Source: an uncultured cyanobacterium
GTDB lineage: Bacteria > Cyanobacteriota > Cyanobacteriia > Cyanobacteriales > CAWUOF01
Direction: 5' to 3'
NCBI GenBank assembly: GCA_963744145.1
Contig: CAVUSO010000001.1
Coordinates: 3,936,001-4,000,000, forward strand
Length of the DNA stretch: 64,000 bases
The notes under the pieces are model-generated. The model had not been told where the DNA came from. It saw only the letters and a program-made list of their open reading frames with translations, and searched no databases. Position 1 is the first letter of the stretch; each line of letters opens with the position of its first letter. A program made the translations under genes and the position numbers. Below are positions 26,348 to 45,337 of the stretch, in pieces.

Positions 26348-27550
26348 TCATTTCCTAAGTTGAGAGCCGCAGGCTTCACAAAACATAACACCTGCCACAT
26401 TTTCATGGCTGCAACTACTACAAATTATCATTCTTGAAGAAGATGGCGCAACCGCCGATTTTAGTCCACACAACTCCCGCCAACTCACCGGCTCCTCAGC
26501 AGGATTCTGACAAATAACCGGCAACCAAGTCGCACAAGGAAATTCACGCTGCACGCTTTCCAATCTTTCTCGCGCTTCCCGCACCGCCAAATACAAAGAT
26601 TCACCGCGAGCAAACGCCTCAAGAAAATACTTCAAAAACTCTTGAGCCACCATATCCGGCACCGGCTCTCGCATCACAATAACTTGCGGCATATTCAAAT
26701 CAGCTAACTGCTTGGCAATTCCCAACCCATCACAAGAGTTAAAAATTGCCAACTTTAACCCTCTCGCTATTGCCCTTCTCAGAGTTAACTTTAAATCCCC
26801 AATTTCTAAACTTTTACCATTTTTAATAAAAAGCTTTCCCATAGTAGCATCAGGTTCACTAATACTGTGACCAGCAAAAAACAAAATATCCCATCCCTGC
26901 GAATCCCAAATCACCTCAAAAACCTTTTCTTTTTCCGGTTCCCTAACAAAAACAATTTCTGCCTCTGGTAACTTTTCTTCTAATTCACGCTGATCCCTCT
27001 CTGAATTAATTCCCGTACTGTCACCAATAATCGCCAAAATCCTCACCTTTTTTCTATTTTTCAGTGAGTTTGATTGCTGACAGACAGGAGAACTCAAAGC
27101 TACTTCTGCATTTAGGTAATGATTAAAAAACTCCCACAAATGCCAAGGTAAGCGCCGCAAGTGGGAGTCTTCAGTTTGAACGATTACGCGCACTTCTTCA
27201 TTTTGCCTAACGTTCATTAGTAAACCCTGCATGACAGGGAAAAAATCAGGTGATTTAAGCCAATCATTAAGCTGCTGTTTTAAAGCATCACTGTCTACTT
27301 CTAAATCGCGACTAGAAAAATTTTGTACCCCTGATATCTTTTCCAATTCTCGAAACCTCGACCCCATTAGACGATATCTGGATTGCCAAGTAGTATATAG
27401 CTGTGGAATGTGCGGTGCAGGTGGCAATTTGCCAATAAATGCTCCTAACAAATACTGATTATCTTCCTTAATTTCCAGCCTGACTTGCTGAAAACCCTGC
27501 TGGCAATTACCAGTGATGAAACTCAATACAGCTATCTTACCCATTGGCAT
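26348..27550 (-). CDS. CHAT protease with C-terminal zinc ribbon
   Basis: FFAGHS, IFNSCDG, EFPCATWLPVICQNP; terminal CSSC..N....FCEACG. Confidence 0.88.
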   Translation of the reverse strand: MPMGKIAVLSFITGNCQQGFQQVRLEIKEDNQYLLGAFIGKLPPAPHIPQLYTTWQSRYRLMGSRFRELEKISGVQNFSSRDLEVDSDALKQQLNDWLKSPDFFPVMQGLLMNVRQNEEVRVIVQTEDSHLRRLPWHLWEFFNHYLNAEVALSSPVCQQSNSLKNRKKVRILAIIGDSTGINSERDQRELEEKLPEAEIVFVREPEKEKVFEVIWDSQGWDILFFAGHSISEPDATMGKLFIKNGKSLEIGDLKLTLRRAIARGLKLAIFNSCDGLGIAKQLADLNMPQVIVMREPVPDMVAQEFLKYFLEAFARGESLYLAVREARERLESVQREFPCATWLPVICQNPAEEPVSWRELCGLKSAVAPSSSRMIICSSCSHENVAGVMFCEACGSQLRK

Positions 27551-27573
27551 TCCCTATAAATTTTGAGTTGAAA

Positions 27574-28935
27574 TTAGATCGCAAAATCCTCAGTAATATT
27601 GACATCCTCCAACACTACTTTAACACTAAAATGTTCTCCCGCTTCCCCTCTAAACTCCAATTGAATCCAATTATCCGCACTTCGAGATTGCGATTCTAAA
27701 AACACTTCTCCAGATTCACCAAGGATAATCAATTGCGCTCCCTGTGGTAAATAAGTTTGTTCTTCCTTACTCGGATACAATCTGACAAGTATATCCCGTC
27801 TTCCATCACTTTCTAGCTGACAATTGATAATTAGCGCAACAGGATGATCTGGCAAGGCGATTTCTCTCACCCTACTCACACTTAAATTAGGTGTTTCAGT
27901 GTCAGCACTGCGGGAACGGGGGGCGCCGGCAAATCTAAAAATTAGATTCCCTTCTTGATTACTTAAAAATGATTCAAGAGGCTGCCAATTGTATTGAGAA
28001 CCTTCAAGATTTTGCAACCATTCACTTAGATTGATTACCCCGGCTGTAGATTGGGATATCGGAGCGATCGCAGGTTGTTTAAGTTGCGGTATTGGTGAAC
28101 TACTTTCATTAGTTAAAGACTCGGAATCAACCGATTTATCTGCGTCATCATCTCCCCATATCTCATCTAACTTTTCTAGCAATTCTTCAGCTAAATTTTG
28201 GAGTTCAGTTTGTTGTAAATCATCAAACTCTTCTCGATTCATAACAGTTGTGCCACCTCGGAAAGCAACATCTTTTACTTTTGGCAAATAACTAGCTAAA
28301 AACTCCCCGCCAGCATAGCGTCGCTCGTATTTGTTATAGGTGCGATAGATGCGTTCTAGTTGAGCAGCAATCTCTAAAATTGATTGGTCTGCTAATCTTT
28401 CCCTAACCTTAATTGCTACCTCTTCATCGCTTTGTAAAAAATCATGTGCTGATTCCAAGCGATCGATATAATCAATCAATGTTTCTATCGGTTGAAGACT
28501 GGCAATTTCTATTTCGTCCGGCGGTGCTTGTGGGTCTATTGTTGGATGAAATCCTAACAGTTGCACCTCATTCAAATGTTCTTGGAATTGTACCCCAATA
28601 TAGGCAATTCTATCCTCAGTTACCTTTGGAGGTAGAGAAATAACTGTTTGTCCAGATAAAACCGGACGACATTCGAGTTTACCTAAATTGGGAATTACTA
28701 AATCCGCTACGTCTTGGAAACATCGGACAACAGAATGCCAACTGTCCCCTGCGTTTAAATTAGTTTCAATTCCTAGCCAGTCTAAAAAACTGCGAACGCC
28801 TAAAATAGCCAGAGTGTTTAAGTAAACTTGCTTACCTTTTTCAACTGTATCTTGTTGCACAGAGAATTTCCGCGCAGTTTCATGGTTTTCTCTGCTTAAA
28901 GGCATCGTCAAAAAGTTGGTTTTTGTGGTATCCAT
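27574..28935 (-). CDS. DUF1822 family protein, copy 1
   Basis: KQVYLNTLAILGV..FL, DVADLVIPNLGKLECRPV, EDRIAYIGV, C-terminal RSADNWIQLEFRGEAGEHFSVKV.L.D....EDFAI. Confidence 0.88.
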   Translation of the reverse strand: MDTTKTNFLTMPLSRENHETARKFSVQQDTVEKGKQVYLNTLAILGVRSFLDWLGIETNLNAGDSWHSVVRCFQDVADLVIPNLGKLECRPVLSGQTVISLPPKVTEDRIAYIGVQFQEHLNEVQLLGFHPTIDPQAPPDEIEIASLQPIETLIDYIDRLESAHDFLQSDEEVAIKVRERLADQSILEIAAQLERIYRTYNKYERRYAGGEFLASYLPKVKDVAFRGGTTVMNREEFDDLQQTELQNLAEELLEKLDEIWGDDDADKSVDSESLTNESSSPIPQLKQPAIAPISQSTAGVINLSEWLQNLEGSQYNWQPLESFLSNQEGNLIFRFAGAPRSRSADTETPNLSVSRVREIALPDHPVALIINCQLESDGRRDILVRLYPSKEEQTYLPQGAQLIILGESGEVFLESQSRSADNWIQLEFRGEAGEHFSVKVVLEDVNITEDFAI

Positions 28936-28947
28936 AAGATTCTCCTT

Positions 28948-44130: not shown

Positions 44131-44142
44131 AAGATTCTCCTT

Positions 44143-44856
44143 TTATTTCTCGTATCCTAATTCTCTAGCAATTGTTCTAAGTAAAGGAAGACAGTAGTTT
44201 CGCCAGCGATCGTACAATGTTTGTTCGGAAATAACTGTTTCGGAAGTGGTTAACTCTCTGGCAATTTGTCTGGGGTTAAGAGGAGGTTCTTCAAGCAGTA
44301 TTTTTTGACTTAAAATTTGGCAATTAAGATGGGAATTATTACGCGGGTGACAATTTCTCAATTTAATTTCTGGATCTTCTTCAATATAGCGCCTCATTTT
44401 CCTAGCAAGGAAATGAAGTTCTTCTATCAAAAGACGCTCAATGCCAGTGATAGTTAAATCATCTGCTATCGTTTCTTCGATTGTTAAGCCGTCTTCTCCT
44501 CTATTTATACTAACAGTTCTAGGTTGCCTGTCTCGCCGACGTTTCACATCTTTGCAATCGCACTTAAGAATCATATTTACCCACTTAATAAAGCATTCCC
44601 GGACATTAGCAGCCTCAGAAGAGTTTTGACAGTTAACGCTTTCCAAGTTCAAAGAATACCTTTGAGGAAACTCATTAATATTTCGCTGAATGTCCCTCAT
44701 TGTCACTGGGAGCGCTTCATCATAATAGGGTAGCCAACCTTTACCGAGATAATTCTTGATTTTTGGCAAATGATCGATCGCGTGTGCTAGGACCTCTGCC
44801 TTTTTAGGATCATGCAAGGCTTCTTGAATTAATTGACATAACGACACATCATTCAT
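44143..44856 (-). CDS. Divergent sigma-70-like/HetZ-like regulator, copy 2
   Basis: Nearly identical to 28948..29661. Confidence 0.7.
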   Translation of the reverse strand: MNDVSLCQLIQEALHDPKKAEVLAHAIDHLPKIKNYLGKGWLPYYDEALPVTMRDIQRNINEFPQRYSLNLESVNCQNSSEAANVRECFIKWVNMILKCDCKDVKRRRDRQPRTVSINRGEDGLTIEETIADDLTITGIERLLIEELHFLARKMRRYIEEDPEIKLRNCHPRNNSHLNCQILSQKILLEEPPLNPRQIARELTTSETVISEQTLYDRWRNYCLPLLRTIARELGYEK

Positions 44857-45337
44857 AGGAGCGTGAATCAAAGCAAAAAAGAGGAATACTCTCGATTTTA
44901 TACCCAAAAGCACCATCCACCTCATCCATCCCCTATTCTCTTAAGCCGCATCGCCCAAGTTCCAGAATCCTCATGGTCAATCTTTAATCGTTGAAGTTGT
45001 GAAGAGTTATGCGTTCGGAGCTTAAATCAGTTTCTACTTAGACTTTCATCTTCCACCATGAAAGCGATCGGGCTACGCATTGGGGTGGAAACCTCTGACA
45101 TCAGCATTGGTCAACATGGCGCGAAAATGGTCATCGAGGGCATTGTATTTCAGTGGATTCATCCTCTTTTTTTACCACATCCCCAGTTCAACTGCGTAAC
45201 TCCCGTTTTTCTATGAAATTAGACTAAAGTCGAATTTATTATCGTTTTATAGATATATAATAAAACTTGTAATATATGATAACTCATTCATCATTAACAA
45301 TTGTTTGCAATAAATTTATAAAAATTGATAAATTCCT

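Follow-up and report, generated by a model that had tools for sequence, protein, structure and literature searches.

The window, a stretch of 64,000 nucleotides (nt) from an uncultured cyanobacterium (positions 3,936,001 to 4,000,000 of contig CAVUSO010000001.1, GenBank assembly GCA_963744145.1), carries an island in which genes for sigma-like factors, DUF1822 proteins and caspase-like CHAT proteases recur side by side. An initial annotation had read them as a CRISPR-independent system in which CHAT proteases act on DUF1822 as an anti-sigma substrate. Our results indicate that the island module, consisting of a sigma-type factor, DUF1822 and a CHAT protease, probably converts a protease signal into gene expression. 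The island is best explained as four copies of a cyanobacterial three-part signalling module that differ in their state of repair, the parts being a sigma-70-family factor (long, or short and divergent, resembling extracytoplasmic function (ECF) sigmas), a DUF1822 protein, and a CHAT protease with a constant module and a variable sensor. The genes concerned, in window positions, are as follows.

28948-29661, minus strand: sigL_A, short sigma-like protein of 237 aa; the start at 29661 is consistent with homologues of 232-240 aa
27574-28935, minus strand: DUF1822_A, 453 aa; Pfam DUF1822 spans residues 11-451, E 7.5e-69
26348-27550, minus strand: CHAT_A, 400 aa, constant N-terminal module, CHAT (Pfam E 4.5e-17) and C-terminal zinc ribbon
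44143-44856, minus strand: sigL_B, short sigma-like protein, 94.9% amino acid identity with sigL_A
42769-44130, minus strand: DUF1822_B, 453 aa, 96.5% identical to DUF1822_A; Pfam E 3.5e-70
41479-42746, minus strand: destroyed CHAT_B, from blastn and tblastn against cassette A
35173-36663, minus strand: sigLong_D, long sigma of 496 aa, TIGR02937 above cutoff
33992-35173, minus strand: DUF1822_D, 393 aa; Pfam E 1.9e-84
33129-33878, plus strand: sigL_C, short sigma-like protein with no adjoining DUF1822, 48-49% identity to sigL_A and sigL_B
31582-32685, minus strand: CHAT_C, 367 aa, only constant module and CHAT; Pfam CHAT E 1.8e-9
38272-40184, minus strand: CHAT_E, membrane-anchored N-extension, constant module and CHAT, frameshifted into two open reading frames (ORFs)

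The ORF listing together with Pfam and NCBIfam scans showed that the order sigma-like, DUF1822, CHAT described before for cassette A is correct in its coordinates and its gaps, which measure 12 bp between sigL_A and DUF1822_A and 23 bp between DUF1822_A and CHAT_A. The second cassette, said to have lost its CHAT gene, is likewise borne out. In a blastn search of cassette A against the window, positions 27527-29777 (A) and 42723-44972 (B) align over 2251 bp at 97.7% identity, and CHAT_B is broken by a degraded IS630-like insert of 1170 bp (41553-42722), which contains an HTH_32/HTH_23 ORF (42166-42648) and a DDE_3 fragment (41702-42001; both Pfam). What remains of CHAT_B is about 8 codons at the 5' end (42746-42723) and a 74-bp piece on the other side of the insert (41552-41479, 97.3% identical to A), the remainder being gone. 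The long sigma-DUF1822 pair, here pair D, and the divergently transcribed sigL_C/CHAT_C pair also lie where the initial annotation had placed them, sigLong_D and DUF1822_D overlapping by 1 nt, and its count of four sigma-like genes agrees with ours. Its six CHAT domains with His/Cys dyads were found across the window as a whole, only three and the CHAT_B remnant lying between 26348 and 44972, while three of its four DUF1822 genes are full genes and the fourth is only a C-terminal fragment at 8684-9142. In CHAT_E the frameshift falls near 39040-39060, where ORF 39051-40184 ends in the conserved N-module and ORF 38272-39036 continues it in another frame. By synteny with a related locus (L002), cassette B occupies the ancestral position and cassette A is an additional copy beyond XisI. 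The divergent sigL_C/CHAT_C pair is also present in L002 and partly in L023, at 81-85% DNA identity.

Conserved linkage and modular anatomy of the three partners

The linkage of the three genes also holds in other genomes. A DUF1822 alignment scan of species-representative genomes confirmed at least 569 loci, which makes the module common, and a single search returned at least 1580 DUF1822 proteins. The best 80 loci by likeness to DUF1822_D, 78 of them with record titles that name a cyanobacterium, were analyzed with profile hidden Markov models (HMMs) built from the window's own families. Because of this ranking the survey leans to the long-sigma type, and short-sigma cassettes are few in it (5 rows). 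The 80 loci contain 83 DUF1822 genes. A same-strand sigma gene lies directly upstream in 67 of the 74 DUF1822 genes with at least 1.6 kb of visible flank (66 long, 1 short, 7 none), with 61 of these 67 junctions overlapping or no longer than 35 bp, and a constant-module CHAT gene lies directly downstream in 46 of the 68 with at least 2.6 kb of visible flank. Where both flanks are visible (n = 60), long sigma and CHAT flank 35 genes, long sigma only 20, CHAT only 3, short sigma and CHAT 1, and neither 1. As the same gene order recurs in other genomes, the cassette arrangement is not a product of chance. The canonical operon is a sigma gene followed by DUF1822 and then by a gene for constant module, CHAT and sensor, and the long pair D of the window belongs to it.

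One may still ask whether these genes just lie side by side in a defence island undergoing decay and are functionally uncoupled in this genome. One CHAT gene has been destroyed by an insertion sequence and another frameshifted, the NACHT-fused CHAT gene that lies 3' of the DUF1822_D orthologue in all four closest relatives (L002, L003, L004 and L023) is missing from the window, and toxin-antitoxin and transposase genes are interspersed among the cassettes. We consider such an explanation highly improbable, as the order is conserved across the largely cyanobacterial loci of the survey, cassette A is intact, and the comparison of DUF1822_A with DUF1822_B points to purifying selection (ratio of nonsynonymous to synonymous substitution rates, dN/dS, 0.29).

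Other enzymes may stand in the place of the protease. A Ser/Thr kinase gene follows the sigma-DUF1822 pair, in the absence of CHAT, at seven loci (L032, L046, L053, L063, L065, L067 and L074), a Peptidase_C14 caspase takes the place of CHAT after a C-domain-bearing pair at two (L040 and L048), and a gene for a dynamin-like GTPase lies about 1 kb 3' of DUF1822 in L014. The contig of L040, with its sigma-DUF1822-C14 caspase locus, is titled as a metagenome-assembled genome of Tatlockia (Legionellaceae) and nests among Chroococcidiopsidales in the tree, and it is probably a mis-binned cyanobacterial contig.

Judged from its sequence, sigLong_D is clearly a sigma-70 family member. NCBIfam TIGR02937 (sigma70-ECF) matches residues 89-350 with 46.6 bits against a cutoff of 42.9, leaving extensions of about 90 aa at the N-terminus and about 140 aa at the C-terminus, and the family profile (A4) matches region 4 of FliA, SigF and ECF sigmas (E 3.2e-9 to 3e-6). 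Among 31 members of the long-sigma family, Pfam detects Sigma70_r4 in 14, Sigma70_r4_2 in 13 and Sigma70_r2 in 1, region 2 giving a weak match to that of 8b3z_A (E 0.023).

The 237-aa protein is harder to place. BLASTP could not align the sigmas of cassette A and pair D with each other. Pfam Sigma70_r2 was found in none of 32 and none of 150 members of the short-sigma family, which gave only weak helix-turn-helix (HTH) matches, a 32-sequence profile matched no solved structure, the N-domain did not align significantly with the long sigma in hhalign, and atlas neighbours were uninformative. The AlphaFold2 (AF2) model of sigL_A (predicted local distance difference test score, pLDDT, 81) contains two helical domains with a disordered segment between them (residues 113-136), and its top six Foldseek matches are all sigma factors, with weak E values of 0.05-0.3 (best 0.048). 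By hhalign, the short profile A2 and the long profile A4 align with 80% probability (E 1.4e-5), carried by the C-terminal domain only, and this C-domain alone aligns with region 4 at E 9.7e-5; Sigma70_r4_2 was found in 5 of 150 relatives at E<=1e-3. The family was then widened to 368 clusters by a profile search of 1.84 billion representatives, the best 150 giving profile A5. This deeper profile, the only one with a significant region-2 match, aligns modestly with regions 2.1-2.4 and the next linker of RpoD/SigA (7ye1_F, E 8.4e-5; 1iw7_F, 2.3e-4; 1l9u_H, 3.3e-4). Since A5 reaches RpoD/SigA region 2, we read the 237-aa protein as a very divergent ECF-like sigma with region 2, disordered linker and region 4, an assignment that is weakly supported at single-family level, where the other evidence is weak. 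The earlier description of these proteins as sigma-like is upheld in the form of a divergent member of the sigma-70 superfamily.

Six paralogous CHAT modules, 40-68% identical, are encoded in the window, namely CHAT_A, CHAT_C, CHAT_E and the following three.

11180-13399, minus strand: CHAT module with a PBP_like_2 domain (Pfam), 49% identity to CHAT_A
17810-19702, minus strand: CHAT module (Pfam E 6.3e-9) with an N-extension of about 220 aa, 47% identity to CHAT_A
21851-23743, minus strand: CHAT (Pfam E 2.9e-12) with iSTAND (Pfam E 8.6e-28), 42% identity to CHAT_A

All six keep the catalytic His (G-H-S/N) and Cys (F-N-S-C-D-G) and score 36-63 bits with Pfam CHAT against a cutoff of 24, and they are predicted caspase-fold cysteine proteases. 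A phmmer search of the PDB with CHAT_A gave no match. A constant N-terminal module of about 110 aa, conserved to the same degree as the CHAT domain, is common to the six and to 57 ORFs of the surveyed loci (HMM E 1e-52 to 1e-175). The remainder of the protein is variable. CHAT_A carries a Zn_Ribbon_1/DZR match at residues 377-399 (Pfam), and among 37 of the 57 locus ORFs, which were scanned with Pfam for extra domains, 16 have CHASE2, 7 have NACHT, NB-ARC or nSTAND1 with repeats, 3 have N-terminal pentapeptide repeats, 1 has a lectin domain with DUF4214, and 10 have none. CHASE2, the commonest CHAT-fused sensor in that scan, is joined instead to an adenylate/guanylate cyclase within the window, at 54511-57317 (plus strand), after a gene for a FecR-domain protein.

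The DUF1822 proteins have a modular anatomy as well. Pfam DUF1822 (PF08852) matches all three over their full length with 233 (A), 284 (D) and 237 (B) bits against a cutoff of 25, and they have no transmembrane helix. In the AF2 model of DUF1822_D (pLDDT 79), an alpha/beta N-domain (about residues 1-180) and a helical stretch (194-267) are followed by a disordered linker (273-285, pLDDT <50) and an eight-stranded all-beta sandwich (290-392), with no tetratricopeptide repeat (TPR) and no RRM-like part. Although Pfam covers DUF1822_A and DUF1822_D end to end, only their last 125 or so residues align by tblastn (50% identity), and in DUF1822 proteins beside short sigmas the N-part HMM scores 21-137 bits and the C-part HMM 61-132 bits. 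The N-part of DUF1822 varies with the type of sigma, and the C-terminal beta-sandwich is present wherever CHAT adjoins. The linker accepts HEAT-repeat or acidic inserts in homologues, and it is flanked by basic residues in the C-domain-bearing proteins, with Arg in the column of DUF1822_D R279 in 68 of 73 and Lys or Arg in column 294 in 69 of 73. Thirteen DUF1822 proteins have no detectable C-domain; none of them adjoins a CHAT gene, a Ser/Thr kinase is next in 7 of the 13, and all thirteen form one clade (Shimodaira-Hasegawa-like approximate likelihood ratio test, SH-aLRT, 99).

These replacements bear on whether DUF1822 is a general sigma-coupling partner whose state is set by the neighbouring enzyme, be it protease, kinase or GTPase, so that cleavage would not be needed and CHAT could be non-catalytic or act on other targets. 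The kinase loci and caspase loci described above, the dynamin-like GTPase encoded near DUF1822 in L014, and the same type of GTPase fused to DUF1822 in P0309 and P0310 are in line with this. We regard it as quite unlikely all the same, since the catalytic dyad is conserved in 6/6 window paralogues and the kinase-linked clade has lost exactly the CHAT-associated C-domain, which argues for a protease-specific interface.

Physical coupling of DUF1822 to both partners is supported by natural fusions. In Microcoleus, ORF L023:1328-2455 joins a short sigma (E 3.5e-37) through a basic linker to a DUF1822 C-domain (E 2.5e-42); it is internal to a locus of a named genome and lies 34 bp upstream of a pentapeptide-CHAT gene. 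DUF1822 parts were also found in 3 of the 150 best short-sigma relatives, P0301 (full length), P0179 and P0200 (C-domain only); the layout of P0200 is that of the Microcoleus ORF, and P0301 and P0179 join the short sigma to longer DUF1822 parts. Other members of the same 150 carry CHAT (P0222 and P0267), TRADD-like_N (P0161 and P0290), pentapeptide repeats (2) or TPR (1). The search for longer DUF1822 proteins returned only P0309 and P0310, both fused to the GTPase, and no long-sigma/DUF1822 fusion, which as a negative is weak evidence. A sigma joined via a conserved basic linker to the C-domain has the look that would be expected of a protease-released sigma, and these proteins suggest that the N-part of DUF1822 does non-covalently what the sigma-C-domain fusion does covalently. 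The sigma-linker-C-domain fusions provide a minimal substrate for a direct test and could themselves be a compact protease-gated transcription switch.

Proposed function and comparison with known systems

The initial annotation knew of no functional description of DUF1822, which does not hold, because Kaur et al. (eLife 2021, PMC8195603), in a purely computational study, describe DUF1822 neighbourhoods with EACC2+caspase genes beside ECF sigma and DUF1822, and propose activation of an autopeptidase, with sigma mediating the last step. In supplement file 3, the source data of their Figure 3, 21 NCBI 'DUF1822 family' proteins are labelled as TRADD-N+TPRs adaptors; these carry HTH, helical or EAD4 N-parts and adjoin EACC2+CASPASE+CHASE2, DZR+Pkinase, STAND or pentapeptide proteins. 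The fusions and both types of cassette (A/B and D) are therefore already in print computationally. The proteins and their order are the same as those found here, with a constant N-module, a caspase-fold protease, variable C-terminal sensors (CHASE2, STAND, double zinc ribbon and pentapeptide) and HTH fusions with a DUF1822 part. The window family has the features of the EACC2+caspase group, that is, a constant module, variable sensors and neighbouring ECF sigma and DUF1822; as no library model is named EACC2, the name rests on the description by Kaur et al. The two accounts differ in that the DUF1822 part is called 'TRADD-N+TPRs' or 'a TPR protein' in that article, in contrast to the Ig-like beta-sandwich without TPR of our AF2 model, and in that its passages on these neighbourhoods propose autoproteolysis rather than DUF1822 as a cleaved sigma tether. 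Relative to those passages, the DUF1822 fold, the modularity that pairs N-part with sigma and C-part with protease, the kinase-linked clade without C-domain, the conserved basic residues flanking the linker and the TGCATAA-core element upstream of long-sigma genes are new.

In a full-text literature search on DUF1822, its biology was discussed only in Kaur et al. and no experiment was found, a genome comparison (PMC9679502) only listing DUF1822 genes; searches on EACC2, EACC1, orthocaspase with sigma factor, and ECF with CHAT domain added nothing relevant. A 2025 preprint on protease-effector defence modules (10.1101/2025.11.14.688446) was not returned by the full-text DUF1822 search, and the preprint itself was not searched for DUF1822 or EACC2; a term search of its main text did not find CHAT.

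In the scheme of Kaur et al., activation of the sensor makes the EACC2+caspase protein cleave itself, and the effectors are the parts set free in this way together with a TRADD-N-like adaptor (DUF1822). The sigma factor would be a parallel or upstream transcriptional controller of the operon or a regulon and would not be freed through cutting of DUF1822. Besides being in print (PMC8195603), this scheme agrees with the constant N-module being as conserved as CHAT and with sigma being the first gene of the operon, and the TGCATAA element upstream of 32/64 long-sigma genes would suit autoregulation. However, it leaves unexplained the conserved basic linker that tethers the C-domain to sigma in the fusions and the change of the DUF1822 N-part with sigma type. 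Moreover, Pfam TRADD-like_N (PF20694) found no match at E<=1 in DUF1822_A, DUF1822_D and eight related or fused proteins, while it does match P0161 and P0290, and the AF2 model has no TPR. We therefore judge it unlikely. The TRADD-N identity of DUF1822 was rejected as a candidate, as the Pfam model gives it no support and the C-domain is all-beta, so that the label of Kaur et al. could not be confirmed.

Several known systems share features with the cassettes. In the type III-E CRISPR Craspase, Csx29 (TPR-CHAT) cleaves Csx30 and frees RpoE (PMC10028731, PMC9825189, 10.1101/2022.08.17.504292), so that, as here, the genes for a CHAT protease, a sigma and a partner other than sigma lie together, partner cleavage being the Craspase switch. 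In contrast, the window has no Cas7-11, CRISPR array or Cas family, its proteases have another N-module, no TPR and a fused sensor as trigger instead of target RNA, and the DUF1822 profile matches no solved chain. The CRISPR independence proposed earlier is consistent with this, no cas gene family being found among 52 window ORFs scanned and no CRISPR array in the window. In CalpL-CalpT-CalpS of type III CRISPR, a SAVED-Lon protease cuts the anti-sigma CalpT and releases an ECF sigma complex; a signal-activated protease, an anti-sigma-like partner and sigma release are shared with our proposal, whereas CalpL is Lon-type with a SAVED sensor, is driven by cyclic oligoadenylate, and the described components have no homology to DUF1822 or CHAT. 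The Haliangium ochraceum cascade runs from SAVED-CHAT through PCaspase to PCc-sigma, with a Ser/Thr kinase in the same operon (10.1101/2023.06.23.546230). Its caspase-fold proteases, sigma and kinase recall the pairing of sigma-DUF1822 with CHAT, C14 caspase or Ser/Thr kinase; the differences are that sigma is cleaved directly there, that the operon as described has an inhibitor PCi and no DUF1822, and that it is linked to CRISPR/CBASS. Another CHAT protease of cyanobacteria, HetF, has a specific regulator as its substrate, degrading PatU3 in Anabaena (PMC9457339). Only its CHAT domain is shared, with no sigma or DUF1822 involved, and NCBIfam HetF scores 12.9-32.7 bits on the window CHAT proteins against a cutoff of 1200. 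Both analogies drawn in the initial annotation, to Craspase and to HetF, are real, as analogies of mechanism and not of family.

In classical ECF sigma/anti-sigma pairs the two genes are transcribed together, the stop codon of one often overlapping the start codon of the next, and regulated proteolysis releases the pair. The cassettes resemble them in that sigma and partner are co-encoded and a protease would be the input, and differ in that DUF1822 has no transmembrane helix and no detected anti-sigma-domain fold and in that a caspase-like protease is part of the operon itself.

We tentatively favour, with somewhat less than even confidence, a reading in which the sensor-fused CHAT protease would be the input, DUF1822 the tether and sigma the output, with the cut in the DUF1822 linker. 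Its basis lies in anatomy, conservation and fusions: we observe a gene order that is kept in other genomes, the domains of each partner, catalytic dyads that are intact, DUF1822 modules that co-vary with their partners, and sigmas naturally fused to the C-domain. That sigma is sequestered, that DUF1822 docks on the protease, where the cut falls and which way the signal runs are inferred from these. The variable N-part of DUF1822 would hold the cognate sigma, and its conserved C-terminal beta-sandwich would dock on the constant region of the protease. Activation of the sensor domain would lead CHAT to cut DUF1822 within its disordered linker, which tolerates insertions and has a near-invariant basic residue on either side, and the sigma, set free, would bind RNA polymerase. 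There are precedents for a protease-released sigma in Csx29 cleaving Csx30 and CalpL cleaving CalpT, each of which frees a sigma. The broader view that DUF1822 represents a new class of modular cytoplasmic anti-sigma tether, with an exchangeable sigma-binding N-module, a docking C-module, a cleavable linker and at least four input enzymes, is possible and rather doubtful.

Several observations weigh against the tether reading. DUF1822 shows no homology to Csx30, CalpT or a solved anti-sigma, because the family profile matched no solved chain of the PDB and Foldseek on DUF1822_D gave only generic Ig-like sandwich matches, to the C-domain only. The protease is not obligatory, as 22 of the 68 DUF1822 genes have no adjoining CHAT. 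The association of C-domain with CHAT is only suggestive because the 13 exceptions form one clade and thus amount to a single evolutionary event. Since cleavage specificity varies among CHAT proteases, the basic residues beside the linker are only candidate cleavage sites. Finally, the sigL_C/CHAT_C pair, which has no DUF1822, and the sigma-CHAT fusions P0222 and P0267 equally suit direct action on sigma.

Sigma itself may be the CHAT substrate, cut between regions 2 and 4, where a basic linker is disordered, or trimmed of its long-form extensions, with DUF1822 as a scaffold or adaptor that delivers sigma to the protease instead of an inhibitor. Beyond the conserved pair and the two fusions just named, the disordered stretch of sigL_A at 113-136 and the extensions of sigLong_D, about 90 aa N-terminal and 140 aa C-terminal, would offer such sites, and the type III-B PCaspase of Haliangium cleaves a putative sigma directly (10.1101/2023.06.23.546230). 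We nevertheless think it improbable, as the sigma-DUF1822 adjacency (67/74) is tighter than that of DUF1822 and CHAT (46/68), sigma-DUF1822 pairs persist without any protease, and in the sigma-C-domain fusions the conserved basic linker follows the sigma and does not lie within it.

If the tether reading is true, it would be a third and CRISPR-independent case of a protease-released sigma factor with a new anti-sigma fold, and would explain how filamentous cyanobacteria wire many sensors to transcription. Should the broader tether class exist, the inputs of anti-sigma tethers in cyanobacteria would be constant-module CHAT, C14 caspase, Ser/Thr kinase and dynamin-like GTPase, giving a widespread CRISPR-independent route from sensors (CHASE2, STAND NTPases and zinc ribbons) to dedicated sigma regulons, and the output domain found fused to TRADD-like modules in other conflict systems would be this same short sigma.

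Upstream element, cassette divergence and the surrounding island

A conserved element precedes the long-sigma genes, and its copy in the window is the following.

36791-36798, minus strand: CTGCATAA motif, 134 nt upstream of sigLong_D

Of 64 long-sigma genes, 32 have its core heptamer TGCATAA (mostly CTGCATAAT) 65-250 nt 5' of the called start, with about 2 expected, and the genes bearing it come from distant cyanobacteria (loci L002-L080). The element may be an autoregulated promoter or an operator. Elsewhere in the window the CTGCATAA octamer shows no enrichment (3 copies, 2.5 expected), and the idea of a regulon marked by it was rejected, as its 3 window copies are at chance level.

In the comparison of the duplicate cassettes, sigL_A and sigL_B differ by 12 nonsynonymous and 1 synonymous substitutions (dN/dS 3.2, not different from neutrality, binomial p 0.33), and DUF1822_A and DUF1822_B by 16 and 15, respectively, the basis of the dN/dS of 0.29 given above; the two ratios differ (Fisher p 0.015). 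Derived sigL changes number 5 in copy A and 2 in copy B, with 5 that could be assigned to neither. Decay of cassette B after loss of its CHAT gene was considered and rejected as a simple account, the sigL ratio not differing from neutrality and the derived changes falling mostly in the intact cassette A.

The remaining DUF1822 sequence of the window lies apart from the cassettes.

8684-9142, minus strand: DUF1822 C-terminal fragment within the chimeric ORF 8672-9595; Pfam E 7.6e-22, profile positions 221-368, tblastn identity 47-49%

The chimeric ORF (minus strand) joins an NAD-binding fragment of a 2-hydroxyacid dehydrogenase to this fragment, and an intact dehydrogenase adjoins at 9964-10962. 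It is probably the scar of a rearrangement that deleted another cassette.

The whole window reads as a conflict island. PADLOC-DB 2.0, with 18 proteins scanned, has no family for 11 sigma, DUF1822, CHAT and VWA proteins; its matches are confined to the MoxR AAA, the IetA-like AAA, the STAND protein at 5003-7375, NsnA/B and DpdD. The STAND protein, of NB-ARC/LuxR-HTH/TPR type, gives a weak CARF3 match in PADLOC (E 4.2e-6). The block 17810-23743 (minus strand) consists of the CHAT+iSTAND gene, a MoxR-type AAA (20928-21866), a VWA protein (19699-20931) and the second constant-module CHAT (17810-19702), and has the look of a ternary conflict system of MoxR-VWA type that draws on the same family of CHAT paralogues. 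Between this block and cassette A lies an intact IS4-type transposase gene (DDE_Tnp_1, 24006-25292, plus strand). Perfect two-copy tandem repeats of 33 bp and 30 bp are found just 3' of CHAT_A (26281-26349) and in the spacer towards the transposase (25539-25600), respectively.

Toxin-antitoxin-type elements are interleaved with the cassettes, namely three DUF433/DUF5615 (PIN-like) pairs at 16576-17266, 30767-31466 and 40510-41114, a lone DUF433-like ORF at 37857-38186 and a RelN-family antitoxin at 41104-41358 (129 bits against a cutoff of 70). Two of these elements occupy the site of the CHAT_B loss. Cassette B is adjoined by the stretches 45338-50712 and 51239-51988, which encode a 913-aa eCIS_core protein, a 179-aa ORF, a GH108 lysozyme-like gene and a 663-aa AAA+ protein with a winged-helix domain that is IetA-like in PADLOC (E 3e-35). 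At the right end of the window (57322-62695), DpdD (E 1e-106), a PLD-like nuclease and NsnA/NsnB (E 9e-121 and 8e-113) are encoded.

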